A stretch of DNA of 64,000 nucleotides. Source: an uncultured Acidobacteriaceae bacterium. Lineage in GTDB: Bacteria > Acidobacteriota > Terriglobia > Terriglobales > Acidobacteriaceae. Position numbers and translations under genes: made by a program. Location of the stretch: the NCBI GenBank assembly GCA_963763585.1, contig CAVXPR010000028.1, positions 15,203-79,202 on the forward strand, in the 5' to 3' direction. The notes under the pieces are model-generated. The model was given only the letters and a program-made list of their open reading frames with translations, ran no database searches and had not been told where the DNA came from. Below, piece by piece: positions 3,801 through 28,010 of this stretch (the first letter of the stretch is position 1; each line of letters opens with the position of its first letter).

Positions 3801-3856
3801 CACCCAGAAATCACCAGAGCCGCAGCCACCAGCCACCAAGCCGCACGAATCCGCAT
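811..3856 (-). CDS. Lipoprotein: 5x SbsA/Big_5-like Ig domains + GH30 (glucuronoxylanase-like, subfamily 8 resemblance); frameshift near 1080
   Basis: Start MRIRAAWWLVAAALVISGC (lipobox) at 3856 with GAGGAG RBS. Five ~103-aa repeats ending WSFTT/WTFTT. GH30 motifs GFGGS, ASPWTAP, AISMQNEP (acid/base), WMTE (nucleophile) and SKFIQPGYVR. The C-terminal beta-sandwich (VYISAY..VIVAIN..LPAQSIVTFVQ) is in ORF 811..1050. Confidence 0.85.
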
Positions 3857-4188: not shown

Positions 4189-7100
4189 CTATTGCACCTT
4201 CACGTTGACATAAAACGGTATCGAGACCTGGTTTTGAGTTCCATAGACCTTGATGCCGTTATTGTTTGCCGATCCGCTTCCAGGAACGATGCAATTATCG
4301 CCTGCGCCGCCCGGTTCGGAGACGCACAACGCACCCACTTCATCCGCTGTGATCGTCACCGCATAGGTTCCTGAAGGCGTAGTCAGCGCGGCTTCGGGGG
4401 TCAAAGTTGTCGTGTTGCACGCTGTAACACTGATCGCCAGCGCGCCTCCGACAACCATCAGCAGCACCATCAGCATCAGCCGGCCTTTTTCAAACGTCTT
4501 GCGCCGGAAGAATAGCCCCATCATTCCCAAGCCAAAGATTGCCGCCAGCGTGACGGAGGTAGCGCGAGCATTTTGGCTTGTGGTGGTGCCCGCCGTTACG
4601 TCGGTGTAGAAAGTCACGGTCACCTGTCCCGGCGTGCATGAGACTGAGCCGTTTGCTATCTGCGTCGTCGTTGCGCCAGTGGGGCATGGAATATCCACGG
4701 CGTTTGGCACAACCGGATCCGGGTTGGGATAGCTGAACGAACATTGTGTATGTGGCGGCAGATTGTCGCAGGTCAGTGAGACCGGGAAGTTTGTAGCGTT
4801 TAGCTGCGAGTTCAGTCCCGAAATCCCATAACCAAGAATCGAAGTGAGAGTCAGATTCATGCTTGCCGAGGATCCGCCCTGCACCGTCACCGACGGAGCA
4901 ACTGTCAGTGACGCCGCATTACCGGTTTGGGTAATTTGCAGCATCGGTCCGCGCACAGACTGCAGCACCTGTGGAGTCGCCCCGGTAAGGCCGAGGAAGT
5001 TTTGATCGCCGCTGTACACCGGGTAGATGGAGTGCGTGAACAGCACTGGCGAATAACTGATGCCCTGAGGCACATACCACAAGCAGCTCGTCGGGAACGC
5101 TGCCTGCGCGCCTGTCGCTGTACCGGCGTTCTCAATGGTCAGCACTCCGGCGCCGGACGATGTCGGACATGCAACGCCCGAGTATCCGCCTGGGCTCGCG
5201 TATCCGGCCAGAACGCAGCTTGCCGCGCCGATTCCCGCTGTCGACGTTCCCGCTGGGCATGTAGTCGAGTTGTCCATCACTGTAATCGACCCTGTTGGAA
5301 CGCCCGCGGCGGTGCCCACTTTCATGATGTAGCTGTATTGGAACGGCGTCTCCGATCCGTCGTACGGAACAGTGCCGCTGCCAGTCCCCGCTGGAACAAA
5401 AGGCAAGTTGATGTCCGTCGGATCAGGGAACGTGGGTGTTTTGATCCCCGTAATCGCGGACTTCGCCACGGTAACTGACAGCGTTCCCGTCGAACGGCCA
5501 TAGACCCGATCGCCGCTGTAGGCCACGGTCATCGTCTGCGTCCCAGCCAATACTGGCGACAGAGTGAAACTGGCGGTACCACCAGCCAGGCTCGATGTTG
5601 CCGTCGCAGTTTGCGGAGTAATGGTCGGAATGCCCGCGTTCGCTCCCGAGCTCGGGATGATCACGATCCAGGTGGTGTAGCTCACCGTAACCGTACCCGT
5701 AGGCGCAATTCCAGCGCCGGCCTTCGGCGCCACCGTAATTGTCAGTGGCGTGTTGATTACCTGTGCCGCACTGGATCCTCCAGCAACGGTGGTAGCGGAG
5801 TTGGTTAGCGCCTGTGCGACGCCAGTGGCGTCAATAACGATTGGAATATTCACGGCATTGCCCGTGATTCCGATGGTGCTGGTTAGCGTCCCTTGCTCTC
5901 CAGCTCCTGGATCGAACGTCACGTTCACCGTGCATGTGGCGCCCGCCGCCACTGGGCTGCCGGCCTCGCAGCCGCCAGTCGCCGTATCGGCAGCTGAGTA
6001 GTCCACCGAATTGCTGCTGGTATAGCCGCTGATTGTCAGCGTGGAATTTCCAGTGTTAGTGATCGTCGCAACCGCATTTGTGGAACCCGTTAGCGTAGCG
6101 GGAGTGGACAGAGTAAGCGTCCCCGCGGTGCCCACCAGGGTGACGGCGCCGCCAGCCGCCTGAACCAGATAAATATTGTTTGTGCGATCAAGAGCGACCG
6201 ACGAAGTACCGGCTACGTTGGAGGCGACCGCGGTCTCCCCGGCGGGATTCAATGCGCCGCCTACCCACGGAACGCGCGTGGTCCCGCTGGCCGACGAAAT
6301 ATAGATCGCGCCGGAGGGATCGACAGCTAAACCGGTTGCGCCGCTCAGATTGTTCAATAGCGTGACTGGAGTCCCCAGGCCGCCAACAAGCTCGAAAAGA
6401 TTCACGCCGTCGATGACGAAGACATTTCCTGAAGCATCCGTAGCCACAGCCGAGGGCGCTGTAAAGCCGGTGGTCAGCAAGGTTTGCGCCTGTCCCAGGT
6501 TTGATGCCGTCGAGGCACCGATACCGCTAAGCTTGACGACCCGCCCATTGGTCGGATCGCTGATATACAAATGGTCCAACCCATCCGCCGCCAATTGCAG
6601 GTCCAGTTGTCCCCAGGCCACTCACCAGAGTTACCTGGCCCGCCACATTCAGGCCGGTTGTGCCGAAGGGAACTTCGTACACGCTGCCCGTGCTGCTGTC
6701 GGCGATAAAGACATCACCCGCGCCATCCACTGCGACGCCCGTAGGCATCGTCAATCCCGTACCGATGGAAACAGCCTTGGATGTGACTGTGGAACCGGGT
6801 GCATACTGGAGAACTTTGCCCTGTCCCGGATCGGCGATGTAGACATTGCCCAGTGCGTCGGTCGCCACTTGAAAAGGCGTCATCAAGCCCGAGCCGAACG
6901 TCGACTGCAGCCCGGGACTTGCCTGGATATTTGCGCCCGTTCCGATGCCGTGCAGCACCATAGACGCCAAAATATTGCCCTTCGCGTCGAGCATCTCCAG
7001 CTTGGCCGAGATATTTCCCACGGAAGTTGGGGTGAAGGACAAATTCTGCAGGCAACTCTTGCCGCTCGCATACGCCACTCCAGTGGTGCAGGTCCCTCCG

Positions 7101-8344
7101 GTGATTGCGAAGTCCACGGCATGCACACCATCTTCGACGATGACGAAATTTGCGGGCGTCGCCGCGCCGTTAAAGCCGAAGACAACATTCGAGCCGGCCG
7201 CCGCTGTCGTGCCCACAGTCGAAGAGCCGAACTCGGCATAACCAAATCCGACCTTGGCCACATCCGCCTGGCCGTTGGTTTGCGACTGGTTGGTAGGAAC
7301 ATACATCACATTGCGTGCGGAATCGATGGCCACCTGGCCCCCGGCAGGCACGCCCGAAAGCAGGATCGCTGAAGAGGTCTGCGGAGTACCGGCTGGATTC
7401 GGCACCTCGACTACGCCGGTTTGCAAATCGCTGATGTACAAGTTGCCGGCGGCATCGGTGATGACGCCCTTCACAGCAGGCAGCATCGGATCCACGCGCG
7501 GAAGAGTTGCGTCCGATGTATATGGAGTGGTTGCGCTCGCCGGGATTTCAAGTACGCCGGGGAGTCCTCCCGAATCCTCGACAAAGAAAATATTATTCTC
7601 CGGGTCCACCGCAACGGCAATCGCCCGCGCGGACAATCCCTGGGCCGGCACAGCAGTCCAATCGCCGTGTACTGGAGCAGACCATGCGCCCGTGACGGAC
7701 AGATCCATTACAGCTGCGCCGAGCGAGCCGCCTTGCTCGCCGACGATCAAGTCGCTGTTGTTGCCGATGGTAACGGCCCACGGCTGAAAGTAGCCGATAC
7801 CATTGCCCGATAGATCGGTGACGCCGTATTGCGCGAAAGCTTCGGGTTCGTTGTTCGATCCAGAGTTGGTGCACATCGTCGTCGTCGGGTTACTTGGCGA
7901 CAGGTCGTTTGGCCCTCCATCGTTGAGGCCAGTCCAGGTTTTCGTCGTCGCGTTCCACGGGAACAACAACAGGCAGTTGTTCCAGTTGGCGCTCAAATAC
8001 AGATTGTTGCCGGGATCGATGGCGATGACGGGGTTTTGGTAACCGCCACCGAGGCTCGCTGATGGCGACGTGGAACCGAGCACGATCGCCGCTCCTCCGC
8101 CCACTGGGAACTCGTACAGCCCTCCGTTGGCATAGTCCACCACAAACCAGTCTCCGGCCTGATCGATTGCCGAGTCCTCAATGGTCCCCCACCCAGTGGG
8201 GTGACTCAAGCCGGCCGCTGAACTGGCCGTCACCAGCGGCGTCCCTTGGCCGGTCGCCAGGCCAGTCAGGCACATGCTGATCAACATCAGCGTAAACGCA
8301 TAGCCGGCAAACCGGCGCAGTGTGGTGAACGATGTGGTGGCCAT
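4189..8344 (-). CDS. Giant secreted NHL-repeat/Ig-like protein A (~1385 aa) with C-terminal TM-hairpin/lipobox module; frameshift near 6610
   Basis: Signal peptide MATTSFTTLRRFAGYAFTLMLISMCLTGLATG with GGAGG RBS. NHL-like repeats (VAVDGAGDVFIAD, VATDALGNVYIAD), ASH/choice-of-anchor-D-like and Big_3-like domains. ORFs 6527..8449 and 4189..6621 join, by comparison with paralog B (SGLG...LxLAxD). Confidence 0.8.
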
Positions 8345-8491
8345 TGCATTCCTCCAAAAAACAACTCGTAGCAACCTTCCGCGTCGGTTCAACTCCGCTC
8401 GCGAATCGAGGCTTGCCTTCTCTTTCATCTCTCCGGGAGTCGCCTCCAACTCCCGGAAAGCATCATTGATTCCAGCCAGTTTCTTCTACCT

Positions 8492-11400
8492 TTACTGAAC
8501 GTTGACCGGCAACGTAAACATCGGGTTCGTCAGAGAGTTCTGAATCAGCGCTTCTGGATCGTAGGTGATAATTTGCACGTTATAACTTCCCGCAGGCGTC
8601 GCCACCTTTGGTGCTGGGGGCGGCGTTGAGTACCCGGCGTTGGTGCAAGCCGTCAGGCCCATGAACAAGCCGGAAAGCATCATCACAACGCAAATTGCAG
8701 CCATTGAACGGTAAAGTTTCTTGCGCCCGGCGATTAACCCAAACAGACCCAGCCCGAACATTCCAGCCAGCGCCCAGGGCGATTGCCGCGCGATCGAAGC
8801 CGTCGAGCCGCCGTTGACCGCTACGTTCGTACTGATGGTCATCACGATGGTTGACGGAACCGGGCCGCTTGCGCCCACGGCCTCTGTGCCCGTGCTCGGA
8901 TTGGCGTAATTGAATGTGCACTCGGAGTACTGAGGCAACGTGGATGCCGGGCTGGTTGTCGCCAGATGAATCGGCGCATCCGATGAGTTGCACTCCAGGC
9001 TCACGTTCTCACTGAAGCCCACCAGCGGCATCAGCGTCAGAGTCACTTGAACTGGCGTCCCGGGCGTGACGGTTGTCGACCCTCCCGACACTGTGATCTG
9101 AACGCTTGGGTTGATTACATAGAAGGTTGCCACCGAAAGTGTCACGGGAGCGTAGTTCACGTCGCCGCTATATACCGCCGACAGATTGTAGACACCCAGC
9201 CCGAGATTCTGCAGCAGGAAGGTCGCAACCCCATTGCCGTTCGGCGCAATAGAACCGCCAACACCCTGAGTTGGATCGGCGGGCTGTCCATTCTGCTCAA
9301 AGGTTACGGTGCCCGAGGGCGTTCCCACCGACGAGCTGATAATCGCCGAAACGTAGACTGGCTTTGTCCAGTACACGTAGGTATTTCCAGCCCACACAGT
9401 CACCAGTCCAGGATTAGCGGCGCAAGTTCCTGACGCGGCCCCGCCCGTCAATGTCGTGTAGTTCAGGCATTGGCTGTTCGTCACCGGCACGCCGAGCGTA
9501 ATTGTCGGAAGCGCCCGTGCGATTGTGAATGTGCCCTTCGCGGCAGCACCTGAGAAACACGGAGTAGCCGTGGCGCATGTGTTCTGCGTGGCGCCTGCCG
9601 TGCCGGCGCCGCTATAGTCTGCGTTGATCGTGTAGGTCCCACCAAGCAGCCCGGTGTAACTAAATGTGGCCACGCCTGCGCTGTTCAGCGTTTGCGTCTG
9701 CTTTGGCTGATTGCCTGTGGTGCTTCCTACTGAAAGCGACACGGTCCCCGTTGGCGTACCAAAGCCCTGACCGGCGGTTACGGTCACTTGGATCGTATTG
9801 CATCCGGGAAAAGTCGCGCCCGCGCATCCTGTCATAGTGACCGGGGTGACCGCGATCGTAGCCGCGGCCGCTGGCCGAAGATCCTGGATTACATTTCCCG
9901 ACACCGCGATACTTACTCCCGATGTTGCATTCACCGCATTGGTGATCACCGCGATAGACGCGTTCGTCTGGCCCGCGGCCGGAGCTTGCAGCACCATGCC
10001 GAGATAGCAGGAGCCGCCCGGCGGAGTGCTCGTGGTCGAGCTGCATCCCGGCGAGTTTTGCGTCGCAGGCGCCACCGTGAAATCGGCGGCGTCGGCCCCG
10101 GAGACGAGATCGATCGTTGGGTCGTCGGAAACCGTCAGCGGCTGATTTCCAAGATTCAGAATCTGCGCGTCCACTTCAGTGGGAACGTTTGGATTGATCT
10201 CCGTAACATCGCTGAAGTTGTACGTGCCGCCTATGCCGAGCTGTGACAGGCCCGCGGTCGACCCGGAGCCATAAGATGCATAGGCATTCTGGGTGCCATC
10301 AAGCGCTACGCCCCACGGTATGGCGGGGCCGCTGCCCAAGCCGCTGGTCAACAAAATCTGGCTGTTGATATTGAGCGCGCCCGTGGTCGTGCTGTATGGA
10401 ATCCAAACCAGTCCATTGGCTTCCGCCGCAAAGACTGAACCCGACGGATCCACGGCCAAACCGGTGATCGGCGCCTGGAGTCCGCTCGCTACCTTCGTCG
10501 AGCCTCCAAAGGGCAACGTTATCTCCCACAGGTTCGACCCATCCGCCACCCACACATTACCTGAAGTGTCAGTAGCAATCGCCGACGGGCCCGCGAAACC
10601 CGATCCCAGCACGATCGGCGGATAGCTTTGCGCCAGCAGCTGCGTCTGCGGATTCGGTATCTCGACGACCTGCTTCTTGGCCTCATCGGCTACAAAAACA
10701 TCTCCTTCGTTATCGGTGGCAAGATTCAGATTGCCGGCGCCCAAGCCCGAAGCGATTTTTGTCTGCTGCCCCGTGGCCAGCGCGCCGTTAACAAACGGAA
10801 TCGCGTAGACATTGCCGGAGTCTCCGATATAGAGATTGCCGACGCCATCAACAGCCACGCCTGTCGGCGCCGATAGGCCGCTGCCCACCACTTTGCCCGA
10901 TGCCGGGCTGGTAGTGCCGGCTGGATATTTCTCGATGGCCTTCAGCGCAGAATCGGCGACATACGTGTTCCCGTAAAGATCGGACGCCACTTGCTTCGGA
11001 TCGTTCAGCCCGGAAGCAATCGATTCAACCGTCGCCGATGAAACCACTGAAACTGCCGAGCCCTGCCCGACACCGCCCAGGTAAGCATTGCTCCCTGCGA
11101 TGACGTCGTTGCTCGAGTCGAGCAGCTGCACTTCGCCCTCAACGGAGCCGGCCTTGTTGGTGTTCAATTGCACGTAGTACGGGCACCAGCTATATGCGCT
11201 CGTTGTCGTCATATTGGCGCTGAATGCCGGATATGAGGTGCCGGCAGTGCAAGGCTGCACTGGATTTGTCGGCGGCGGGTTATCCAGCAAAGGATTGTTC
11301 GCCACGGTCAGGAAATTTGTATTGCTCGGCGCCGCCAGTGAAATAGTCGACGGCGTGGTCGGCTTGTTGAACATGTAGTAGAGGGCTTGCGTTTGATTGA

Positions 11401-12877: not shown

Positions 12878-13027
12878 ACATTCCCTCCAACAAGTTCAAT
12901 CAGATATCTCTTTACCAGCGGCTTACTTACCCTCGCCGGCCGTTCCGCCGTTGCCGACCGCCTGCCAGTCCCCTTTCCGAGCGCCGCATCAGGTTCACGC
13001 TGCGGCTGCCCGGGCAGAGACCATACA

Positions 13028-16945: not shown

Positions 16946-17105
16946 AGTAGTCCCCCCGTCGGCTACATTCCTTTTTGACTTTGACAGTTGGTTCCCGGTC
17001 CCCATACCACGCCTAAGTTATTGCGCACCCCAACTATGCATGCAAGCGCCACTTAAGCCTTTGGGTATTGGGACGCAGATTCTCGTTCTACTTTGATGAC
17101 AGGGA

Positions 17106-17135
17106 ATTCTGAAGCTTATGGTTAGAGTCTGTCAA
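17106..17135 (-). promoter_or_regulatory. Sigma70-like promoter for the TonB receptor operon
   Basis: Minus strand TTGACA (17135-17130), 18 nt, CAGAAT (17111-17106). Confidence 0.5.
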
Positions 17136-17162
17136 GCGAATTCTTTCCGGGTTTTTCAATAA

Positions 17163-17176
17163 TGGGATCGGTACCG
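17163..17176. promoter_or_regulatory. LacI-type operator-like site TGGGATCGGTACCG upstream of the TonB receptor promoter
   Basis: Central-CG imperfect palindrome ~28 bp upstream of the -35. Confidence 0.4.
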
Positions 17177-17834
17177 CAGGTTTACCAGTCTATGCGCCTT
17201 CTCGGGCCTTTGCGTGGTGTGCTTTCGGCCCTTGCGCCGCGACTCCTCGGCCCATTAAAACCGCGAGCATCTCTACATTTGAGGGTATTCCGGCGATTGT
17301 GATTCCAATGGGACTACGCCGTCACGCGCGATTCATCGCGCAATGTCACTGGATTGTCACGCGCCCGCCAAAGTGCTGAAATCGCTCGCCTCGCGATTGA
17401 AAAATCGCTTCACTTCATGTGCATATTTTCCCGGCGAACATTCACCCGGAAAAGCCATTCGCCACCCGCGTCTCAGGATTTCAGCACGCCATCTTCGCCC
17501 GCGCATGCCGCATCAACGCCTCCACCGAAAGATTGACAGGCCTTCTTGCGCGGCCGATCGTGTTCATCATCAAGACTCGCTGCGAGAGCGCTCACACGCC
17601 GATTACGCGACATGGCGCTTTCCCTATGCATCGCGCCACAATTCGTTAGCCCTGATTTCGATATCATGAAATGCCCTGCGCGAGCCCTGCTCCAACCCCG
17701 CTCCAGCGTCGATCAATGTCTGCTTAGATGGCCGCCGCGGTCATGGCTAAAGGAGGCCCTGTGCCCCTCGGAAATCGCTCACTCGTGCGCCCAATTCGCT
17801 TGCCACAAGCCCGGAATCGTTCTCCGCCTCGTCC

Positions 17835-20800
17835 TTAATCCGGCACCACGAAAAGCGTGATGGATTGCGCCGGGAACGTGTAACTGCTGATCGTGCTCGT
17901 CGTCCCGCTTGCCACCGGCGGCGTCACGCTCACACTTGTTTGCTGCACGATCGCGTTCAGGTCGGCGTTGCTGTACTGGTAGACCTGCGCCGTAGTTCCA
18001 TTCGCTGCGGTGAGATTCAGCAAGCTGATCGTCGACGTCAGCGGGCCATAGGTCTTGTTGATCACCATCACGGTAATCGCGCTGTCAGATGTTCTCTGTC
18101 CGCCGTAAACCGACAGCTGGCCTTCCCCGTCGCCGCTCGATCCCGTGCTCGTCGCATACAGGTACGTGTTCCCAAAAGTCGAATCGTTTCCGTCGTAGTT
18201 GCGGTACATGGCGAAGGCGTAGTTACCGGGGCCTTGCTGGTTGTAGTTCGTCGTCGGCCAGAACGCGCCCATGCCCAGGCCCTGCCGTCCGAAGATGCCC
18301 AGAATGTCCGCCTGAGCCAGCGCGCCGTTAATCGACTCCAGGCCGCCAAAGTTGTATTCGTCGATCGCCGTCTTCGTGCCGGGGTAGTCGTTCGCCACCC
18401 ATGTCTGCAGCATGGGAATCAATTGCGGTGCCTGCGCCGGTGGGTTGCACTTAGTCGTGTAGTTCGCATCGGTGATGTAGTTTGGCTGCGGTTCATTTGG
18501 ATCGGTGTAGCTTGGATCCCAGAAGACCCGCGTCGCGTTCACCCGCGCCTCCTGCTCTTGTGTGTCCCCGGCGGTCGTAAAAGCCACTGAGGTTCCACTG
18601 CCGGCAGGGTAGTCCGGCGCAAAATACCCGTGAATGTCAACGTAATCGAGCAGCCGCACGCCATACTGCTGCGAATAGCTTTTGAACTGCTGCATGTAGT
18701 ACTCAATCATCGGAATGCCGCCGTGAGCCTCGCGGTCGATAGGCGCACTCCACGGTTGGTAGCACGGGGAGCCGGTGTCCCACCCATTCTCAATGTCTTT
18801 CTTTGAGTAGAAATATGCTTCCCAGTAGTCGATCACGGGACCGCTCACCAGAGCCGTCGGATCGGCGGTCTTGATCGCCAACGCAGTCCCGATGCCGTTG
18901 TTCGTCACTTCGTCGTAGGTAAACGCAACCGGATGCACGTCGCGATGCACCGCATCCCACCACGTCGGCTCATTATCCAAATCCCATACGGCCACGCCCT
19001 TCCCGCTCGCGCCATTGCCAAGGCTTGAATTCGTCGCTATCGAATTCGCCCAGCCGCCAGGCCAAGTCCCATCCGCCCATGTTGTTGTCACCGAGCCGGG
19101 ATTCGGAACCGTGCTGGCCGTGGGAGTCGCCGAGGGGTCCGCAATGTTGGGCGGCGGCTCAGAAAGGCTCGTGATATTCGGAATCTGCGTGCCAGTGGTG
19201 CCGTTGCTGCCGTTTAGATCCACGCCGCTGGTCAGTACCCCGTTTCCGCAGCCGCTCTCGAACGACTGCTGGCCGGGGAACTGCGTTTGCGTAAAGCTGC
19301 ATGCGTATTGCGTATTGTTTGACACCCATCCGAGAACCGGCACCGTACCCAGCGCCGCTGAGCCTGCAGCGTCCGTCGACTGCACGAACTGCGTGAAATT
19401 GGTGCTCCCCGTCGCGTTCGGAAACTGCCCTCCTCCACCGCTGAAGTTCTCGAAATAATAGTCGCTGGCAGAGTTAGTCATGTTGAGTTGGTAGTTGTAC
19501 CGCGAAGTATCGTCGCCGCCCCAGCGCACAATGCCCGGATTGGCAATCTTCTCCGACGCTGAATCCAGAACGTATCCATTCATCCCATAAACGTACGGGC
19601 TGATCGTGTGCGGATTCTCGCTCGGCGTACTGGGAGTATTCACGTCCACGGCCAGCGCCGGACCTGTCGCCGTCGTCGGCGCGCTCAATGTCACCGTCGC
19701 GCTGCCACTAATATTCGTGAATCCGGTCATGGTGCTGGTGGCCGTAACGGTCACCGATGCCGGCGCCGGATAAGGCGTGTTGTAAAGGCCATTCGCGTTA
19801 ATCGTGCCGCCACTCAAACTCCCACACGAAGGGCAACTCAGCGACCACGTCACGCCAGTGCTGTAGGTTCCGTTCCCGTGCACCGTCGCAGTGAATTGCT
19901 GCTGCGTGCCGATCGTTGCCGTGCTCGGCGTCACTGTAATCGAAGTAATTCCAGCCTGGTTGTAATTCGCCGTCACGGTCGTGTTGCCGCTCATCGTCAC
20001 GTTGCAATTGATTCCGCCTGCCCCGCTCGTCGACGCGCATCCGCTCCATGACACAAAGGAATAAGTGTTGTCGCTGAGCGGCGCGCTCAGTGTCACCTGC
20101 GCGCCTGAGTTGTAAACGCGCGTAAAAGGCGTCGCTCCCGCGCCTGCGCCGTTGTTGTCGGCAGGAGAGACAGGCGAGATCAAGATGCCGCTCGCGGGAG
20201 CCACGGAATCCACCGTCAGTGTGTATGCCACGCCCGAATTCACCGTCACTTGCACGGTTCCGCTCGCGCTTTTGTAAGAAGGCGAACTCGTCGAGTCGGG
20301 AGTGTAGCTGCCGGTCAGCGTATCCGTCCCCGTCGTCAGCGAGCTGGCTGGAATGTTGATCTGTGCGCTTCCGTTCGTAAGCGTTGTCGCCGAAGACGTG
20401 TAGCCGCCGCCGCTCAGCGTCACCGAGCCAGTCGGCGTGGTTGTTCCTGCGCCGCCGCTAACCGTGACCATCACGGAAAGCGGGCTTGTGACGGAAATGC
20501 TCGACGAGCCCGGAGTCACCGTAACCGTCGGAGCAGCCGTGTTCACCGTTACGCTCACCGAGCCTGCAACCGTGTTGTAGTCTGTCGTGTCGCTAGGCGT
20601 AAACGTCAGGCTTTCGCTCGGTGTCCCACCACTAGGCAATGTCGTTGGCGTAGTCCACGTAAACGCGCCGCCCACAGACGCAGTGCCCCCGCTCAACGCT
20701 GACGATGCCAGTGTCTGCCCGTAGGTGATTGCGCTAGCCGTCGGCCACGCTGATACCGTCGGCGTTGCCTTGTTCACCGTCACGTTCACTTGGCCTGGCA

Positions 20801-21347
20801 CCGTGTTGTAGTCGGCCGCGTCCGTCGCGGTAAAGGTCGCGCCCTGGCTGCTTGTCCCGGTTGCTGGCGTCGTTGTCGCTGTCGTCCAGGAGAAAGTCCC
20901 GCTTACCGACGCCGTGCCACCGCTCAGTGTCGACGCAGCAAGCGTCTGGCCGAATGTGATTGCGCTCGCCGTCGGCCACGTCGTCACCGTCGGAGTCGCC
21001 TTGCTTACCACCACTCCCACAGAACCCGCCACCGTGTTGTAGTCGGCCGTGTCCGAAGGCGTAAAAGTCACGCCCTCACTGGGCGTGCCCGCACCAGGCG
21101 CCGTTGAAGAGGCAGTCCAGGAAAAAGAGCCGGATACCGAGGCCGACCCTCCGGTCAAATTCGACGAAGCCAGCGTCTGCCCGTAGGTGATTGCGCTCGC
21201 CGTGGGCCATGTCGTCACAGTCGGCGTGGTTTTGGTGGTCCCGCCCCCGCCGCCCCCACCCGAGCTATAGCTGCCACCGCACCCCACCACCCACAAACTC
21301 ACTAAGATTCCGACCCAGATCGCCGACCGACGCCCCAATTTCGTCAT
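17835..21347 (-). CDS. Lipoprotein: Ig-like stalk (3x 77-aa repeats, Big_3-, InlB-B-repeat- and Big_2-like) + GH44 endoglucanase/xyloglucanase
   Basis: Start MTKLGRRSAIWVGILVSLWVVGC (lipobox) at 21347. GH44 motifs ISPYVYGMN, RWGGDDTSRYNY, DYYFEN, DLDNEP (acid/base), HRDVHP, LLDYVDIHGY, AIDEYNFGG (nucleophile) and LAQADILGIFGRQGL. Confidence 0.88.
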   Translation of the reverse strand: MTKLGRRSAIWVGILVSLWVVGCGGSYSSGGGGGGGTTKTTPTVTTWPTASAITYGQTLASSNLTGGSASVSGSFSWTASSTAPGAGTPSEGVTFTPSDTADYNTVAGSVGVVVSKATPTVTTWPTASAITFGQTLAASTLSGGTASVSGTFSWTTATTTPATGTSSQGATFTATDAADYNTVPGQVNVTVNKATPTVSAWPTASAITYGQTLASSALSGGTASVGGAFTWTTPTTLPSGGTPSESLTFTPSDTTDYNTVAGSVSVTVNTAAPTVTVTPGSSSISVTSPLSVMVTVSGGAGTTTPTGSVTLSGGGYTSSATTLTNGSAQINIPASSLTTGTDTLTGSYTPDSTSSPSYKSASGTVQVTVNSGVAYTLTVDSVAPASGILISPVSPADNNGAGAGATPFTRVYNSGAQVTLSAPLSDNTYSFVSWSGCASTSGAGGINCNVTMSGNTTVTANYNQAGITSITVTPSTATIGTQQQFTATVHGNGTYSTGVTWSLSCPSCGSLSGGTINANGLYNTPYPAPASVTVTATSTMTGFTNISGSATVTLSAPTTATGPALAVDVNTPSTPSENPHTISPYVYGMNGYVLDSASEKIANPGIVRWGGDDTSRYNYQLNMTNSASDYYFENFSGGGGQFPNATGSTNFTQFVQSTDAAGSAALGTVPVLGWVSNNTQYACSFTQTQFPGQQSFESGCGNGVLTSGVDLNGSNGTTGTQIPNITSLSEPPPNIADPSATPTASTVPNPGSVTTTWADGTWPGGWANSIATNSSLGNGASGKGVAVWDLDNEPTWWDAVHRDVHPVAFTYDEVTNNGIGTALAIKTADPTALVSGPVIDYWEAYFYSKKDIENGWDTGSPCYQPWSAPIDREAHGGIPMIEYYMQQFKSYSQQYGVRLLDYVDIHGYFAPDYPAGSGTSVAFTTAGDTQEQEARVNATRVFWDPSYTDPNEPQPNYITDANYTTKCNPPAQAPQLIPMLQTWVANDYPGTKTAIDEYNFGGLESINGALAQADILGIFGRQGLGMGAFWPTTNYNQQGPGNYAFAMYRNYDGNDSTFGNTYLYATSTGSSGDGEGQLSVYGGQRTSDSAITVMVINKTYGPLTSTISLLNLTAANGTTAQVYQYSNADLNAIVQQTSVSVTPPVASGTTSTISSYTFPAQSITLFVVPD
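20536..21228 (-). repeat. Three tandem 231-nt (77-aa) coding repeats in the GH44 stalk
   Basis: TPTV(T/S)(T/A)WPTASAIT(Y/F)GQTLA..DYNTV.G.V.V.V recurs. The Trp-Pro codon anchor falls at 21205, 20974 and 20743 (period 231). Confidence 0.9.
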
Positions 21348-21521
21348 ACCCACCCTCTCTGCTCTATACCCACTTCCTCTATCGGCTTGCGGTCCTAATC
21401 TTATCGGGTTGGGCAAATCGTCGGCGCCCCTTGCTCCAAACCATGCAGGCGAAATCGGGGTAAGATCGGGGATTTCTCTCTCTTCTTCGCCGTCCTGTTG
21501 GCCCCGAAACCAGCGCGGCAC

Positions 21522-21535
21522 AGATAACGGTATCA
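21522..21535. promoter_or_regulatory. LacI-type operator-like site AGATAACGGTATCA upstream of the GH44 gene
   Basis: Near-palindrome with central CG in the divergent GH44/protein C intergenic region. Confidence 0.4.
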
Positions 21536-21721
21536 TGATTTTTTATTCCGAGCCGATTGTAGGGTGCTTCCGCCGGGTCAGCAAAAATGTCGAGCAGCTC
21601 TCCGGGGCGCGCATCATCAATAGCAGCAGATAGATTCCCCGCCTTCATCCGTACCGCCGCCAGGCCCTTGTTCACCTGATTTTTACGCCCGCCTCATTCC
21701 CCGCGCTTAATCGTTTTTCAC

Positions 21722-21763
21722 TTGACAACCGCAAATTTTGTCGAGTACGGTGTACCGTTACCA
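21722..21763 (+). promoter_or_regulatory. Sigma70-like promoter for protein C with overlapping operator-like site
   Basis: TTGACA (21722-21727), 18 nt, TACGGT (21746-21751). It overlaps GTGTACCGTTACCA (21750-21763; reverse complement TGGTAACGGTACAC). Confidence 0.5.
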
Positions 21764-22085
21764 AATTTGTAGAATTATCCGCACGTAGTTCCAGTTAGCT
21801 TCACGCTGCCGCTCTGTGTGGGTATAGGTGCCGGAGTTTTCCGGCAGTTTTCAGGATTCTTTTTTCTGCGCGTGCTCTCCCAGCTTTTTTCGGGGTCGAT
21901 TCGAAGACGGATATTTCGTCCTTCGAGACCGAATCGTGCGTGAGGCTGATCGGGTCAGTTACTCGAACGGCATGCCAGGATGGGGTTCGATTCAAAAGTT
22001 TGATGTTGGCCAAGGACGTTACGGGACAAACCCGGCCGTCACCGATTCCCCGCTTCGGGGATGGGAACAAATCGGAGGAGAAGGA

Positions 22086-25000
22086 ATGCAAATTACTTTC
22101 AGCAAATTGACGAGTCCAGTTCGGTCCCTCGCGGCGGGAACAGGCGTTGCCCTGTTCACGGCCCTTTTCGCAGTCTTGACCCTTTGCCTTGGCGCATCTT
22201 CAGCGATGGCACGGCCTCCCTCGCCGCCCATCGTGGTAACTGGCCCCTCCGTCACCATCGGAGACTTGAATTTCGGCGGCGCAACCGGTGGCTGGCCCGG
22301 CGGCCAGGCGCCTTTGGGCGGCACCTTCGTGGTGGGTCCAAACGGCGATGTGATCGTCGGCGACGGTTACGGTGGCTGTGCGGCCTGCGGCGTTTTTCTC
22401 ATCACTCCCGCCGGCGTGCAATCCGTCATCGCCAATTTTGGCAACAGCAATGCGGCTGGCATGGACCAGTACGGCAACGCCTATATCGCCAGAGACTACG
22501 GCTCGAGCATTATCAAGCTTCCTTACAGCGCAGCGACAGGCACTTACACGGGCTTTACCACTCTTCCCACCGCCAATTGCCTGGGTGGCACGCAGGATAC
22601 GGCCGCGTGCGTTTTTGCTTCGGGCTCCCAGTCGCTGTTTGCGGGCGAGAATGGTGGCTTCTCATCTCTGCTCTTCGATGGGCAAGGTAATTTCTTCTTC
22701 TCTACCGATGCCAATCCAGCAAACAATCCCGATACGATTTACGAGTGCGTTGCGAGCAGTCTGCCAGCTTGCAGTTCTCCTACGGTTGTTTTCGCCGATA
22801 AGTCGGGCGGTTTGGGTTCGGTCGCCGTCGATCCCTGGGGCAACCTGTTCTTCTCTGACGGCGCTGACAACGGCGCGAATACCGGAAAAGTTAGCTACCT
22901 CGAAGAGTTGCCGCTATCAGGTGGAGTTTACGCCGCCGCGCCGACGGTGATGACTTCTTACACGACGACTGCCGGCTACAACGCGATCACCGGCGTCTCG
23001 GCCAATAGCCTGAATACTGTATTTTTCTCCGTCGCCAACGACGGCGTCTTTGCCCTTCCGAACTCTTCGTCCGGCCCCAACTCTGCTGGAATTTACAAGG
23101 TCTCTGGCCAGGGCGGCCAGGGCTTAGCAGTCGACAGCGCCGGCAACTTGTATACGGTCGGGTATCTCAATTCCCTGGGACACACTGGAGTCGCCAAGAC
23201 AATCCTGAATAACTTCTCCTTCGGCGCCTCGCCAGTCGGAACCGCCGCGACAGCGGTTGCCGTGACGGTGAACGATAACGCCGGCAACTGCACCACTCCA
23301 CCAACTTTGGCCGTTAGCAGCCTCGAAGGCGGAGTCGTGTCAACCGAATTCGCAACCGTGGCTGGAACGTCCTGTTCAACATTCGTCGGCACCGGCAGTG
23401 GAACCTTCAGTCCTGCGCTGGCGTCCACTGCCGCTTCATTTTCGGCCACGATTACCTTCACGCCAACTGCAGTCGGCTCGCGCAAAGCTGCGCTGGTTGT
23501 TACAGATTCGGCAAATTTCGCCATCGGCACCACAGCGCTCATCGGCGTTGGTCAGGGCGCCGCAGTCAACGCCGACCCCGGCGTCTCAACCGCGTACGGA
23601 ACCGGATTTACCAAACCCTATTCGGTCTCTGTCGATGCCGTGGATGACTTGGCGATCGCCGATTTCGGAGCGGGTAAGCTTTTCTGGATTCCCGCCGGAT
23701 CTGCCGCCGGAACCGCGCCCACCTCGATCGGTTCGGGATTCGTCGAGCCTTCCGCAACCGCATTTGACGCCAGCGGAAACCTGTACGTCGCCGATTTCTC
23801 CAACGACAACGTCGTCGAGATTCCCTACGTAAGCGGCGCCTTGGCTCCCGGCTCGCAGTCCACTCTGATCTCGTCTACCTTTGCGTTCAATGGAACTGCG
23901 CTCAACGAACCAAGCGGATTAGCAGTCGGGCCTGACGGCACGCTGTACGTCGCCGACCTCGGCAACAACCGCGTTGTAAGCTACAACCTCGTCACCGGAG
24001 AAACAGCGGTTCCGATTACCGGACTCAAAAACCCGTGGGGAGTTGGCGTCGATTCTTCCAGCAACCTCTACGTCGCCGATACCGGCAATGGCAACGTCCT
24101 CATTGATGCCGCCGGCGCTCAGTCCACATTGACGGTGCCCAACGCCGCTGCTCCATGGGGAGTTAGAGTCGACGCATCCGGCAGCTTGATCGTCTCTGAC
24201 CACGCAACCGGCAATATCGTGTGGGTCCCAAGTGTCGCCGGAGTTCTCACTCCTGCCAGCGCGGTAACGATCGAGAAGAATCCCAGCTCCGCGCTCGGCA
24301 TTGCTCTTGACGCTTCGGGCAACCTCTTTACGACCGACGCGACTGGCGCTTCGGTTTACGCCATTCAGCGCACCGCGGCCGCCCTCAATCTGGGCACCGT
24401 TTCCGATGGCGTCACCAACTCCGCGAACATTTATCTCGAGAGCGACGGAAACATTCCGGCGACTCTGGCCACTCCAGACGTGACCGAGCCAACGAACACC
24501 ATGTTCACTCTCGTTCCGGCTGCGAGCAACGGCTGCTCCAGCGGCTCATCCGGAAATCCCGGAATGGCTTGCCAGTTCACCGGCACCTTCGCTCCGCCGC
24601 CTGCCACTCCCAACGGACCGCAGGTCGGCGCGGCAACCATCGCTGTCGCCACTCCGGCTGCCTCCCTCAATGTGAGCCTCAGCGGCTCAGCCACTGTGTC
24701 GTCGATCATGCCGCAGACCATCACTGGCTTCAACCCACCCACATCCCTGCAGGCAGGCCAAGTGATCACACTGTCGGCTACCGGCGGCGCATCCGGCAAT
24801 CCGGTCGTCTACTCGATCGACGCCGCCTCCGCATGTCCAACATGCGCCACCATCGCGGGCAGCCAGTTGACGGCAGTTTCAGCAGGCGCCGTCAAAGTTG
24901 ATGCCAACCAGGCCGGCGGCGCAGCCAACGGCAATCAATATGCCGCGGCAACGCAAGTTCAGGCGCCGATCACAATCACCAACACCGTGGTTGCGGCCGA

Positions 25001-28000
25001 CGTGCCCGCGCTCTTGGCGAACCAGATCTACTGGAGCTACCAGAGCGGCTCCTTCACCGACGGGCAGAATCCCGCAGGTGGAAGCTTCGCCGTCACACAG
25101 AATGGCTTGATCTACGTCGGAACGACTTACAGCAACAAGGCCGACATCGTAAGCCAAAGCACCGGCGCGCTGATCTCGTCGATATCGATGAGCGGCGGCG
25201 GCGTATTCACGATCGACAGCAAGAACAATCTCTATATGGGCCACCTTTACAACTCGGCAGTCTTCAAGATTCCGTTTGTGAGTGGCGCCTATGTGACGTT
25301 GAGTGACCTGTCGTCGGCGCCAAACTGCACCGGCACCGATACGGCAATCTGCACCGTCGCAAATCTTCCCAGCGGTGGAACGAAGGCGGTCGCATTCGAC
25401 GCCTCCGGCAACCTCTACATGGTTACTGTTCCTTCAGGAAATGGTGTCAACGCAATTTATGAGTGCAACGTGGCCTGCCAGGTTGGCGGCACCGCAACGC
25501 TGGTCTACTCAGATACCACCGGCGCAGTCAGCCAGATTGCTTTAGATCCCTGGGGCAATTTGTTCTTCACCGATGGAATCTACAACGATGCGAGCTTCGC
25601 CAACGACGACAAGGTGACGTCTTCCAATCTCTACGAGCTGCCCTACACGGCGGGAACGGGCTTTGCGGCCAATCCCACCCTCTTGCAAACCCTCACCGAT
25701 GCCTCACCGGGCAACTACGACAATCAGTTGGATGGCGTCGCCGTTACATCCACGGGCACCATCTACTACGCCGACCAGAACGATGGAATGTTTGCCATCC
25801 CCAACACCAAAACCGGCGGCCCCGATACTGCGCACCAATACGTCGTATCGGCCCTCGGCGCAAAGGGTATGGAGCTTGACGCAAACGGCAACGAGTGGGT
25901 CGTGGTCTATCACGCCGGCGGCGACAACCTCGGTTATGCGCTCATCGGCGACTTGGTCACGCCTAACGCCCAGTACGATGGCGCTCCGGTCAATGCACCA
26001 GCCACCGTCGTGGACAACGCGTTGCCCTGCACGACTGGCGCAACCCTGGCCTTTGCATCCTCGAACGCGGAGTTCGGCGCAACGCCCGGAACACCGTGCT
26101 CGACAATTTCAGCCTCAACCTTCAGCACTCCGGTCTCCGCCTCTTCTTATCCGGCGACCATCACCTTCACGGCGACCAAGCCTAATTCTCAAACGGCAAC
26201 GTTGAGCATCTCCGACACCACCAACGGTGGCGAGGGAACAGCAACGGTCACCGGCTTCGCTTTGACTACGCCGCAGACGCTCACCTTTACGGCGCCCACC
26301 ACAACCACTTCCATCTTCTCGCCCGGCGAGACGATCTTGCTGACGGTAACTAACGGCGGATCCAACAATCCTGCCGCCTTCACGGTTGATTCATCAAGCA
26401 CCGGCGCGGGAACAATCTCCGCCACCACCGTCACCGGTACCAGCTCGTCGGCAACGTTGACCGTCACGCAGGCGGGCAGCATCGTCATCGACGCCAACGA
26501 ATTGGGCGGTCTTGCCAGCGGCACTTATTACGACGCTGCTCCGCAGGTCCAGTTGACGCTCACCGTTAACAAGTCTGCTGAGGCCATTACCTTCACGCCG
26601 CCAACTTCGCCGGTCCTGTATTCACCTGGATTGACGGTTCCTCTGAGCGCACTCGGCGGTGGCGCCTCAACTCCGGTGGTCTTCACGGTCGACGCGTCCA
26701 GCACCGGCGCAGGGACCATCTCCACCACAACAGTCACCGGCAACACCTCAACGGCAACGCTGACCGTGACCACGGCAGGCACCATCGTGCTCGACGCCAA
26801 CCAGGCAACCGATGTGAACTACCTGGCAGCACCGCAGGTTCAGCAGGTCTTGGTCGTCAACCAGGCTGCCCAGACCATCGTCTTCACTCCGGTCGCCACG
26901 CCGCTCCACTACATTGCGTCGTGCTCACCCATCACGCTCTGCGCAACCGTTACCATCCAGGCCACGGGCGGTGCTACAGATAATCTCGTCGCCCTCAGCC
27001 CCGATCCAAGCAATGCCGTGATCTTCACTATCCTCAGCAGTTCTGTGAAGAACGGCGTCACGACGGCAACGATAGCGCTTGTGCCAAACCAGAACCTGAG
27101 CTTCCCGGCCAATTTGATCATCGACGGCAATCAGCAGGGCAACGCCAACTACGCGGCCGCTACCCAGGCGAAGATCACCGTCAGTGTTCTCGGCGGGCTG
27201 CCGCTGCAGACCATTACCTGGTCAAACCCAGGCACGCAGGTCGGCGGCGGTACCTTGGCGCTTAACGGATCTGCCAGTTCCGGATTCCCGGTCACCTACA
27301 CTTCCAGCACAACGTCCGTGTGCACAGTTACTGGCGTCACGGTCACGTTCGCAAAACCAACCGCTGCCAGTGCCTGCACCATAACGGCTACGCAGGCCGG
27401 CGACAACCTTACCTTTGCCGCGGCCATCCCGCTCACGCAGACGTTCGCTGTGAACCCGGCCGGCCAGAGCCCCAGCCTGAACATGGCCCTTTCACTGTCC
27501 ACACTCACCATTCAGCCCGGAACCGTTGGCTTGACGCAGATCACTCTTACCTCCGTTAACAACTTCGCGGTCGGTTCGATTACCTTCTCCTGCAGCGGCC
27601 TGCCATCCGGCTACAACTGCTCCTTTAACCCGAACCCGGTAACGGTCTTCGCCCAGAACTCAACAACCGGTCTGCCCTTGGGAACGACCGTAACCACGAC
27701 GCTCACCGTTACGCCGCCTGCATCGGCTGCCGTTGTCCATCAGGACTTCAGGCCGATCTTCCCGGCGACCCTGGCGGTGGCGCTCTGCTTCCTTGGCTTC
27801 AAGAAGCGTAACCGGCTCTACATGCTCGCGTTGCTGGTTGTCCTCTTCGCCGGAATAGGCTTCGTCTCCGGCTGCGGCGGCACCACCAACAGCGCAACAA
27901 CCAAGTCGGTCACGTCCACAGCCACCATCACCGCGACTCCGGCGCCAGGACTTGCCGGCGCGTCAGGATCGGTGCAATCAAGCGCAACCTTGACCGTCGT

Positions 28001-28010
28001 CGTCCAATAG
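22086..28010 (+). CDS. Giant secreted protein C (~1974 aa): duplicated propeller modules, NHL repeats, Ig-like repeats, C-terminal TM-hairpin/lipobox module
   Basis: Strong RBS GGAGGAGAAGGA before ATG 22086. Signal peptide ending SSAMA, NHL repeats (PWGVGVDSSSNLYVAD), five Q(T/A)I(T/V)F-type Ig repeats, and VSGC lipobox near the C-terminus. Confidence 0.85.
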   Translation: MQITFSKLTSPVRSLAAGTGVALFTALFAVLTLCLGASSAMARPPSPPIVVTGPSVTIGDLNFGGATGGWPGGQAPLGGTFVVGPNGDVIVGDGYGGCAACGVFLITPAGVQSVIANFGNSNAAGMDQYGNAYIARDYGSSIIKLPYSAATGTYTGFTTLPTANCLGGTQDTAACVFASGSQSLFAGENGGFSSLLFDGQGNFFFSTDANPANNPDTIYECVASSLPACSSPTVVFADKSGGLGSVAVDPWGNLFFSDGADNGANTGKVSYLEELPLSGGVYAAAPTVMTSYTTTAGYNAITGVSANSLNTVFFSVANDGVFALPNSSSGPNSAGIYKVSGQGGQGLAVDSAGNLYTVGYLNSLGHTGVAKTILNNFSFGASPVGTAATAVAVTVNDNAGNCTTPPTLAVSSLEGGVVSTEFATVAGTSCSTFVGTGSGTFSPALASTAASFSATITFTPTAVGSRKAALVVTDSANFAIGTTALIGVGQGAAVNADPGVSTAYGTGFTKPYSVSVDAVDDLAIADFGAGKLFWIPAGSAAGTAPTSIGSGFVEPSATAFDASGNLYVADFSNDNVVEIPYVSGALAPGSQSTLISSTFAFNGTALNEPSGLAVGPDGTLYVADLGNNRVVSYNLVTGETAVPITGLKNPWGVGVDSSSNLYVADTGNGNVLIDAAGAQSTLTVPNAAAPWGVRVDASGSLIVSDHATGNIVWVPSVAGVLTPASAVTIEKNPSSALGIALDASGNLFTTDATGASVYAIQRTAAALNLGTVSDGVTNSANIYLESDGNIPATLATPDVTEPTNTMFTLVPAASNGCSSGSSGNPGMACQFTGTFAPPPATPNGPQVGAATIAVATPAASLNVSLSGSATVSSIMPQTITGFNPPTSLQAGQVITLSATGGASGNPVVYSIDAASACPTCATIAGSQLTAVSAGAVKVDANQAGGAANGNQYAAATQVQAPITITNTVVAADVPALLANQIYWSYQSGSFTDGQNPAGGSFAVTQNGLIYVGTTYSNKADIVSQSTGALISSISMSGGGVFTIDSKNNLYMGHLYNSAVFKIPFVSGAYVTLSDLSSAPNCTGTDTAICTVANLPSGGTKAVAFDASGNLYMVTVPSGNGVNAIYECNVACQVGGTATLVYSDTTGAVSQIALDPWGNLFFTDGIYNDASFANDDKVTSSNLYELPYTAGTGFAANPTLLQTLTDASPGNYDNQLDGVAVTSTGTIYYADQNDGMFAIPNTKTGGPDTAHQYVVSALGAKGMELDANGNEWVVVYHAGGDNLGYALIGDLVTPNAQYDGAPVNAPATVVDNALPCTTGATLAFASSNAEFGATPGTPCSTISASTFSTPVSASSYPATITFTATKPNSQTATLSISDTTNGGEGTATVTGFALTTPQTLTFTAPTTTTSIFSPGETILLTVTNGGSNNPAAFTVDSSSTGAGTISATTVTGTSSSATLTVTQAGSIVIDANELGGLASGTYYDAAPQVQLTLTVNKSAEAITFTPPTSPVLYSPGLTVPLSALGGGASTPVVFTVDASSTGAGTISTTTVTGNTSTATLTVTTAGTIVLDANQATDVNYLAAPQVQQVLVVNQAAQTIVFTPVATPLHYIASCSPITLCATVTIQATGGATDNLVALSPDPSNAVIFTILSSSVKNGVTTATIALVPNQNLSFPANLIIDGNQQGNANYAAATQAKITVSVLGGLPLQTITWSNPGTQVGGGTLALNGSASSGFPVTYTSSTTSVCTVTGVTVTFAKPTAASACTITATQAGDNLTFAAAIPLTQTFAVNPAGQSPSLNMALSLSTLTIQPGTVGLTQITLTSVNNFAVGSITFSCSGLPSGYNCSFNPNPVTVFAQNSTTGLPLGTTVTTTLTVTPPASAAVVHQDFRPIFPATLAVALCFLGFKKRNRLYMLALLVVLFAGIGFVSGCGGTTNSATTKSVTSTATITATPAPGLAGASGSVQSSATLTVVVQ

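Follow-up and report, generated by a model that had tools for sequence, protein, structure and literature searches.

The window analysed here is a stretch of 64,000 nucleotides of contig CAVXPR010000028.1 from an uncultured Acidobacteriaceae bacterium (assembly GCA_963763585.1; 3.48 Mb in 86 contigs), and it contains three genes for giant proteins, here called A, B and C, which end in the same C-terminal module. All three tails match the NCBIfam family NF058595.1 'invert_tail', the lipo-invert putative C-terminal anchoring domain (release 20.0, June 2026). The explanation that we favour, with somewhat better than even confidence, is that A, B and C are exported passenger proteins composed of beta-propeller/NHL and immunoglobulin-like (Ig) repeats, each carrying a C-terminal lipo-invert module, in a Terracidiphilus/Acidobacteriaceae genome. 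The genes are located as follows.

4189 to 8344, minus strand: gene of protein A, ~1,385 amino acids (aa) if read through; NHL/propeller and Ig passenger with the N-terminal signal peptide MATTSFTTLRRFAGYAFTLMLISMCLTGLATG
6600 to 6602, minus strand: single extra base within A (ACTGGACCTGCAA versus ...GG-CTGCAA in orthologues), causing a frameshift; from comparison with four orthologous loci
8492 to 12877, minus strand: gene of protein B, 1,461 aa; Sec signal, propeller/NHL repeats, Big_3_5 Ig domains and lipo-invert tail
22086 to 28010, plus strand: gene of protein C, ~1,974 aa from the likely ATG; Sec signal, two propeller/NHL regions, Ig repeats and lipo-invert tail

Pfam matches in the three proteins (NHL, SBBP and Big_3_5) are confined to the passengers. 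The N-terminal signal peptides were recognised by visual inspection of the translated sequences; B begins with MAIESTVMFRKVARIASLVLLAGVLPGVAAKA and C, from the likely ATG at 22086, with MQITFSKLTSPVRSLAAGTGVALFTALFAVLTLCLGASSAMA (MQITFSK...). Judging from the sequence, this ATG is most likely the start of C, rather than the GTG at 21828 of the long open reading frame (ORF). A purine-rich stretch (..GGEG-M..) precedes the ATG, and the signal peptide begins there. Protein A had been taken for one giant protein, and both its module and its signal are indeed present, but they do not share one open frame. In this assembly A is made up of two ORFs, one at 6527-8449, which holds the signal, and one at 4189-6621, and the signal stands on a separate ORF because of the one extra base, a 1-nucleotide frameshift near 6601. 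The four orthologous loci lack this base and there A reads continuously (...GLGTTGLQLAADGLD...); protein A is therefore represented here by either a pseudogene or an assembly indel.

The module has the same order in A, B and C: an Ig half-domain, a first transmembrane helix (TM1), a basic loop, a second transmembrane helix (TM2) ending in V/L-T/S-A/G-Cys, and a beta tail of 44-75 aa, as read from the translations. An earlier note on this DNA had described an N-terminal Sec signal together with such a five-part ordered C-terminal module; both were recovered, every peptide quoted in it was reproduced by translation, and the segments lie close to the positions first assigned to them. It had also described the Ig half-domain as one with a Cys pair; the half-domain is present, but in the family alignment (36 modules from 25 genomes) the Cys pair is common, not invariant. 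The segments are listed below, protein by protein.

4555 to 4887, minus strand: A, Ig N-half, strands A-E, including LTCDNLPPHTQCSF (translation)
4507 to 4554, minus strand: A, TM1, VTLAAIFGLGMMGLFF, putative stop-transfer helix (translation, hidden Markov model (HMM))
4480 to 4506, minus strand: A, basic loop RRKTFEKGR, predicted cytoplasmic (translation)
4417 to 4479, minus strand: A, TM2 ...ISVTAC, lipobox V-T-A-Cys with the Cys codon at 4417-4419 (translation, HMM)
4192 to 4416, minus strand: A, tail of 75 aa: strand F TPSGTYAVTIT, then an insertion of ~30 aa that contains Cys, then strand G FYVNVKVQ (translation, HMM, alignment)
8777 to 9106, minus strand: B, Ig N-half, strands A-E (translation, AlphaFold2 (AF2))
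8726 to 8776, minus strand: B, TM1, WALAGMFGLGLFGLIAG (AF2 helix; conservation 0.92 in 31 orthologues)
8705 to 8725, minus strand: B, basic loop RKKLYRS (translation)
8645 to 8704, minus strand: B, TM2 ...MGLTAC, lipobox L-T-A-Cys; Cys1411, codon 8645-8647 (alignment, AF2)
8495 to 8644, minus strand: B, 50-aa tail with linker TNAGYSTPPPAPKV, strand F TPAGSYNVQIITY and strand G FTLPVNVQ (AF2; predicted local distance difference test (pLDDT) 81-92)
27474 to 27755, plus strand: C, Ig N-half, including FSCSGLPSGYNCSF (translation, AF2)
27756 to 27800, plus strand: C, TM1, IFPATLAVALCFLGF (AF2)
27801 to 27815, plus strand: C, basic loop KKRNR (translation)
27816 to 27875, plus strand: C, TM2 ...FVSGC, lipobox V-S-G-Cys with the Cys codon at 27873-27875 (HMM, AF2)
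27876 to 28007, plus strand: C, 44-aa tail, a divergent copy ending ...SATLTVVVQ (HMM, AF2)

When the last 180-230 residues of each protein were scanned, tail B (41.6 bits, E = 1e-10) and tail C (38.4 bits, E = 1e-9) scored above the curated NF058595 cut-off of 37 bits, and tail A (33.2 bits, E = 5e-8) just under it; a six-frame search of the genome gave 43.2, 39.7 and 34.2 bits for B, C and A, respectively. Tail A stays below the cut-off because of the ~30-aa insertion, its alignment ending at position 97 of the 113 of the model, and its architecture is otherwise complete. In a scan of the full-length proteins B was flagged at 35.9 bits, just below the cut-off. The proteins of this locus show the architecture of the family: behind an N-terminal signal, they close at the extreme C-terminus with TM1, a basic cluster, TM2, the lipobox Cys and a beta tail in that order. 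The catalogue model extends over the same elements as the module described here, from the final strand of the Ig N-half through TM1, the basic cluster, TM2, the lipobox Cys and the linker to the terminal strands. This comparison is made by the model and the name of the entry, and the entry gives the role as 'putative' only. Twelve complete modules were recovered from this genome by the six-frame search, each at the extreme C-terminus of an ORF of 392-2,060 aa (stop to stop), and a profile built from 35 modules gave 8,451 matches at E <= 1e-10 among 1.84 billion cluster representatives. The resemblance of the tails is therefore not due to chance, as one curated HMM matches them at E = 5e-8 to 1e-10, in a genome with 12 copies and among 8,451 representatives. 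Hence A, B and C are further members of a catalogued family, B typical, C divergent, and A sub-threshold and frameshifted. The module had been put forward as a new anchoring system with no known equivalent; this fails at the catalogue level because the tail is already curated as NF058595. The refuting condition named in the earlier note, an existing family that covers the module, applies in spirit, although the catalogued mechanism is putative, not known. The value of the present finding is thus confirmatory, as it adds three members, one broken and one divergent. No paper or experiment on a lipo-invert tail, an internal or C-terminal lipobox or an inverted lipoprotein was found in the literature.

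The module is the last Ig-like domain of the protein, with ~60-80 residues inserted in the loop between strands E and F. The insert consists of TM1, an Arg/Lys cluster, TM2, the invariant lipobox Cys and a linker, in most cases rich in Gly. Sequence comparison shows strands F and G, which follow the insert, to be homologous to the part with which intact copies of this domain end. In the paralogue C11:10402-15777, tandem intact domains (...SVTTTSSTTTGAYTITITGTSG...VNVFVN), ending ...SSALSVTTTSSTTTGAYTITITGTSGAITHTTTVNVFVN, are followed by a split third copy, which runs from ...TATATVTTTAVTS through TM1-PARRRSW-TM2-LSSC-G(n)-NPG to TTAGTYTFTITSAGS...TTFTVSVN, so that the hairpin falls exactly between TTTA.. 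and ..TTAGTYTFTIT. A profile of the 36 modules from which the hairpin columns had been excised (111 positions) found seven intact Ig copies of 95-113 aa in the genome (three on contig C11, two on C65 and two on C47), five of them at independent E-values of 2.6e-16 to 1.8e-8 and one C47 copy at only 3.4e-3, and the same profile aligned two split copies whole, spanning 166-175 aa. On contig C65, an 802-aa ORF (frame +0) has an intact copy of this Ig domain, unsplit and with neither hairpin nor lipobox, that reaches to 2 aa from the C-terminus of the protein; it is a natural comparison partner for the split version.

The predicted structures are consistent with this arrangement. The AF2 model of the B module (36-sequence alignment, mean pLDDT 73.8) shows six strands in the N-half, where most 10-residue blocks reach pLDDT 81-92, a hairpin whose helices span residues 112-126 and 133-153, and two tail strands (174-183 and 197-204), likewise at pLDDT 81-92. 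The C module is modelled in a similar way but with less confidence: the first 24 residues of its tail (135-158) are below pLDDT 50, and the terminal strands reach 70-81. Foldseek aligned single Ig domains of 103-106 residues over 203-205 columns of the B model, with TM-scores normalised to the target of 0.63 for 6v3p_C and 0.53 for 8cxj_B, and Ig domains of 100-103 aa over 187-189 columns of the C model. As these short targets span a long query, the two halves appear to superpose on one sandwich in which the hairpin is a gap; N-half plus tail thus align to an intact single domain, although at Foldseek E-values of at least 3e-3. The proposal that the transmembrane hairpin is inserted inside an Ig domain is borne out in this way, and the intact and split tandem copies, the hairpin-excised profile, AF2 and Foldseek place it between strands E and F.

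That the tail is homologous to strands F-G of this domain also bears on a very different reading, in which TM1 and the Arg cluster form a sortase-type (PEP-CTERM-like) signal for an exosortase-like enzyme, and everything downstream is a small lipoprotein fused in frame. The succession of a motif, a transmembrane helix and RRRR is indeed reminiscent of the three-part signals in substrates of exosortase, rhombosortase and myxosortase (PMC11980579), and this genome encodes an exosortase homologue. But the N-half and the tail are not independent, given that homology, no PEP-CTERM or other sorting-signal HMM matches even at E <= 10, and an exosortase at E <= 1e-5 is missing from the genomes G048 and G062, which are 100% complete and carry 6 and 9 modules; these points make the reading very improbable. 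The exosortase was for the same reason rejected as a general processor of TM1, being present here and absent from the complete module-bearing G048 and G062. In accordance with what had been claimed from the letters alone, the module therefore differs from PEP-CTERM, GlyGly-CTERM and LPXTG signals, none of whose NCBIfam models matches at that same relaxed threshold.

Conservation of the individual segments was followed in B, for which 33 orthologous loci were found with full-length B as query, stemming from metagenome-assembled genomes (MAGs) labelled Terracidiphilus sp. or Acidobacteriaceae. Expressed as the mean majority fraction among 31 orthologues, it is 1.00 for the Cys, 0.95 for the linker, 0.92 for TM1, 0.90 for the F-G tail, 0.83 for both the Ig N-half and TM2, and 0.82 for the basic loop. 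The tail, linker and TM1 are in other words conserved at least as well as the Ig half, which suggests that the tail is selected as a folding partner and is not a leftover. The TM1 of B, WALAG[LM]FGLGL.GLIAG (glycine-zipper-like), and its Pro-rich linker TNAGYSTPPPAPKV are near-invariant in the 31 MAGs (loci L050-L082), above TM2 or the Ig half, and this hints at a specific helix-helix or protein contact. For the family at large, statistics were taken from the best 150 of the 8,451 representatives, of which 132, mutually less than 50% identical, hold the whole module; in all 132 it sits at most 5 residues from the C-terminus of the protein. Among them information is highest at the end of strand E (TTA), at a Trp where TM1 begins, in the Arg cluster, at the Cys and its -1, +2 and +3 positions, and in GT.xGxY..T(V)TG of strand F, with -3 and -2 less constrained.

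The Cys is the sole invariant column of the 36-module alignment (36/36) and is likewise present in 132/132 representatives. Position -1 is occupied only by Ala (81), Ser (26) or Gly (25), V, L, I or A predominate at -3 and -2, and Gly stands at +2 in 125 of the 132, with Gly-Gly at +2/+3 and no Asp. These preferences around the Cys are those that define the substrates of Lgt and of signal peptidase II (LspA). A lipobox of the form [LVI][ASTVI][GAS]-Cys, preceded by a basic n-region and a hydrophobic h-region, is found in A (VTAC), B (LTAC) and C (VSGC). The idea that helix 2 and its Cys form a lipobox, which a Cys that varied among homologues would have spoken against, thus holds with a textbook-like motif, and the topological part of the argument, that by the positive-inside rule the basic loop lies inside and the Cys at the outer face, is sound as reasoning. 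What departs from lipoproteins is the position, as the Cys is not near the N-terminus: in B it is residue 1411 of a total of 1,461, and the end of the protein is 45 residues away in C and 76 in A. The NF058595 HMM also cross-matches genuine N-terminal lipoprotein signals of this genome, namely MRIRAAWWLVAAALVISGC-GGGSGGGGG (model positions 45-111) of the gene adjoining A and two more on contigs C61 and C66. The match to the signal of the neighbour of A suggests that the stretch of TM2, lipobox and linker derives from, or mimics, normal lipoprotein signals.

These features bear on the simplest alternative, a plain two-helix hairpin anchor, according to which the protein stays full-length in the inner membrane with neither lipid nor cleavage and the Cys is kept for a disulfide or for helix packing. 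Two hydrophobic helices around a basic loop would suffice for anchoring. However, an invariant Cys with A, S or G in 100% at -1 and Gly in 95% at +2 is the signature of Lgt/LspA and not of a packing residue, no conserved partner Cys exists in the 36-module alignment, and TM2 plus linker have the same form as the genuine lipoprotein signals of this genome; we consider the plain anchor improbable.

The enzymes for such a signal are encoded in the genome: one LspA (138 bits), two homologues of Lgt (144 and 90 bits; G000:C61:23000-23734 and G000:C77:15495-16262) and Lnt (284 bits). The only LolA-like match (G000:C56:2149-2632) is in two pieces in different frames or ORFs (open frames of 198 aa and 84 aa), each at ~25 bits, and the gene may be frameshifted or divergent. 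In the mechanism that we propose, the N-terminal Sec signal would export the passenger and TM1 would act as a stop transfer that leaves the basic loop in the cytoplasm. The chain would thereby be inverted, and TM2 would enter the membrane N-in/C-out, like the signal peptide of a lipoprotein. Lgt would add diacylglycerol to the Cys, LspA would cut before the Cys, and Lnt would acylate the new N-terminus. The resulting lipopeptide of 44-75 aa would supply strands F and G to the incomplete Ig domain of the passenger, and the far end of the passenger would be lipid-held at a membrane via the ordinary N-terminal lipoprotein machinery, used in an 'inverted' manner.

It might be objected that the module is an artefact in which the genes of a membrane-anchored giant and of a small lipoprotein are read as one, or that translation starts internally at TM2. 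A Met stands at the start of TM2 in about a third of the modules, and A is frameshifted elsewhere in this assembly. But the single open frame is kept in the 12 paralogues, in the 33 orthologous loci and, across independent assemblies, in thousands of representatives, and a lipoprotein signal begun at that Met would have no basic n-region, so the chance of an artefact is close to nil. The internal start at TM2 was rejected in its own right, as the Met there is not conserved.

Several points weigh against the inverted lipoprotein mechanism as set out above. Lipidation, cleavage and localisation are all predicted from sequence. The passenger would stay covalently joined to the two-helix hairpin after the LspA cut, and the lipid would be redundant unless something else happens; it would be useful only if the hairpin is removed or if double tethering is valuable in itself. 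The tail of C is divergent and half of it is modelled below pLDDT 50. The packing of the tail into the N-half is a prediction drawn from pLDDT, Foldseek alignment spans and sequence homology, and every Foldseek E-value is weak, so that the structural support is moderate and that from sequence strong. As to membership of the family, full-length B reaches 35.9 bits against a cut-off of 37, and A is below the cut-off and frameshifted in this assembly.

The redundancy of the lipid would be lifted by a second cut. In this version the chain is cut by a further protease after strand E and before TM1, non-covalent beta-strand complementation to a triacylated lipopeptide is all that holds the passenger (more than 130 kDa), and the Lol pathway together with a surface-export route takes the complex to the outer membrane or the surface. 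It is the only way in which the lipid adds something beyond the hairpin, and a Pro followed by a Trp is conserved before or at the entry of TM1 (information 6-8 on a scale of 0-9). In Escherichia coli, Asp after the Cys retains a lipoprotein in the inner membrane, and the Lol sorting rules of Acidobacteria may differ; with Gly-Gly and no Asp at +2/+3, the E. coli rule predicts no such retention. The genome holds Lnt and the LolA-like gene, and the passengers are of glycan-degrading or glycan-binding types, which are expected to be extracellular. Against this, no candidate protease was found and no gene recurs around the 12 paralogues, the copy number of Lgt does not track the module, two complete module-bearing genomes have no exosortase, and none of the three secretin-family matches in the genome reaches the GspD cut-off that would mark a type II secretion system (T2SS). 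We therefore regard the second cut as unlikely. If it were true, it would represent a sorting principle with neither a dedicated sortase nor a characterised precedent, and C-terminal anchoring via the ordinary Lol pathway.

The earlier note had suggested surveying the Acidobacteriota with an HMM of the module and recording any co-occurring protease, and this was carried out on an even sample of 301 genomes: the module was present in all 23 of the sampled genomes of the same family, and no partner emerged among the three candidates checked in this one phylum. In each of the 23 genomes between 1 and 14 copies were scored, the upper figure being equal to the total of scored candidates. Two other families of the class, with one sampled genome each, have five and two copies, and the rest of the sample gave single weak matches only, of which the one inspected (L042) is an ordinary unsplit Ig tail. 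A dedicated Lgt paralogue was rejected as a partner, since the 1-4 Lgt copies across the 301 genomes are independent of the module and several module-rich genomes have one only. All-against-all BLASTP of the ORFs within 8 kb of the 12 paralogues revealed no recurrent family besides the passengers themselves, and the genes downstream are mutually unrelated. The passengers of the module are diverse and include FG-GAP and NHL propellers, a sedolisin-type/pro-kumamolisin-type protease, a lipase-like domain, arabinofuranosidase B, chitobiase-type repeats, TIG and BACON. Such diversity is what a general sorting or anchoring tag would show.

Among known systems, classical N-terminal lipoproteins (for example pullulanase at the surface) have in common with the module the basic n-region, the h-region, the lipobox, a Gly/Ser-rich tether and the enzymes present in the genome. 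In the module, however, the signal lies inside the chain, with 44-75 residues left to the C-terminus and another transmembrane helix in front of it, and cleavage would part the lipid peptide from the bulk of the protein. The PEP-CTERM/exosortase, GlyGly-CTERM/rhombosortase and LPXTG/sortase systems resemble it as multi-copy tags on diverse passengers with a hydrophobic helix and a basic cluster near the C-terminus, but the module has neither a signature motif nor an HMM match of theirs, and its basic cluster is not terminal. Membership of the PEP-CTERM/exosortase system in particular is contradicted by this lack of an HMM match and by G048 and G062, which carry modules and no exosortase.

A further C-terminal system with a Cys is MYXO-CTERM of the Myxococcota, processed by the myxosortase MrtX, in which an invariant Cys is proposed to receive a lipid, Lgt being the foremost candidate, and to be cleaved afterwards (Guo, Haft and Wall, mBio 2025, PMC11980579). 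It has a single transmembrane helix, with the Cys before the helix and a terminal Arg cluster, and needs a dedicated CPBP protease; according to its authors it differs from lipoproteins in that a defined lipobox is missing and the topology is inverted (PMC11980579). MYXO-CTERM and lipo-invert are alike as C-terminal tags on Sec-exported surface proteins of diderms, with an invariant Cys and many paralogous passengers per genome. They differ in that the second helix of lipo-invert restores the topology of a lipoprotein, that the lipobox is canonical, that the lipid would be left on a separate tail peptide, and that no dedicated enzyme is seen. The proteins studied here do not belong to MYXO-CTERM, as their Cys comes after the second helix, their Arg cluster is not at the end of the chain and no MYXO-CTERM HMM matches at E <= 10; the CPBP partner was not searched for. 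By analogy, lipo-invert looks like an alternative solution to that of MYXO-CTERM, in which an extra helix would re-invert the chain for the standard machinery.

Few systems for C-terminal surface anchoring are known in diderms (such as exosortase, rhombosortase and myxosortase), and each of them depends on an enzyme of its own. With the lipo-invert tail the same result seems to be obtained by the housekeeping enzymes of lipoproteins, one chain-flipping helix being added. In donor-strand complementation, as in chaperone-usher pili, and in split beta-sandwiches or split GFP, an incomplete sandwich is completed by a separate polypeptide. The module would differ in that both pieces arise from one precursor by cleavage, and it shares neither sequence nor machinery with donor-strand complementation, which serves as a working analogy only. 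Should cleavage leave the passenger held only by strand complementation, proteins would be anchored here on a new principle, and a ready-made split-domain tool would be at hand. Lipo-invert tails are very common in soil Acidobacteriaceae, with thousands of distinct metagenome representatives, and occur on hydrolases, proteases and giant propeller proteins; the tagged proteins are likely to matter for the breakdown of polymers in peat and soil.

The surroundings of the three genes may be described in the same context. Between B and C, on the minus strand (13028-21536), lie genes for a protein with CarboxypepD_reg and an outer-membrane beta-barrel (13028-17005) and for a GH44 protein with an Ig domain (17835-21536), and the giant proteins therefore sit in a locus resembling those for glycan utilisation. 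The gene adjoining A (1025-3856, minus strand) encodes five Big_5 domains behind its ordinary N-terminal lipoprotein signal, MRIRAAWWLVAAALVISGC-GGGSGGGGG.

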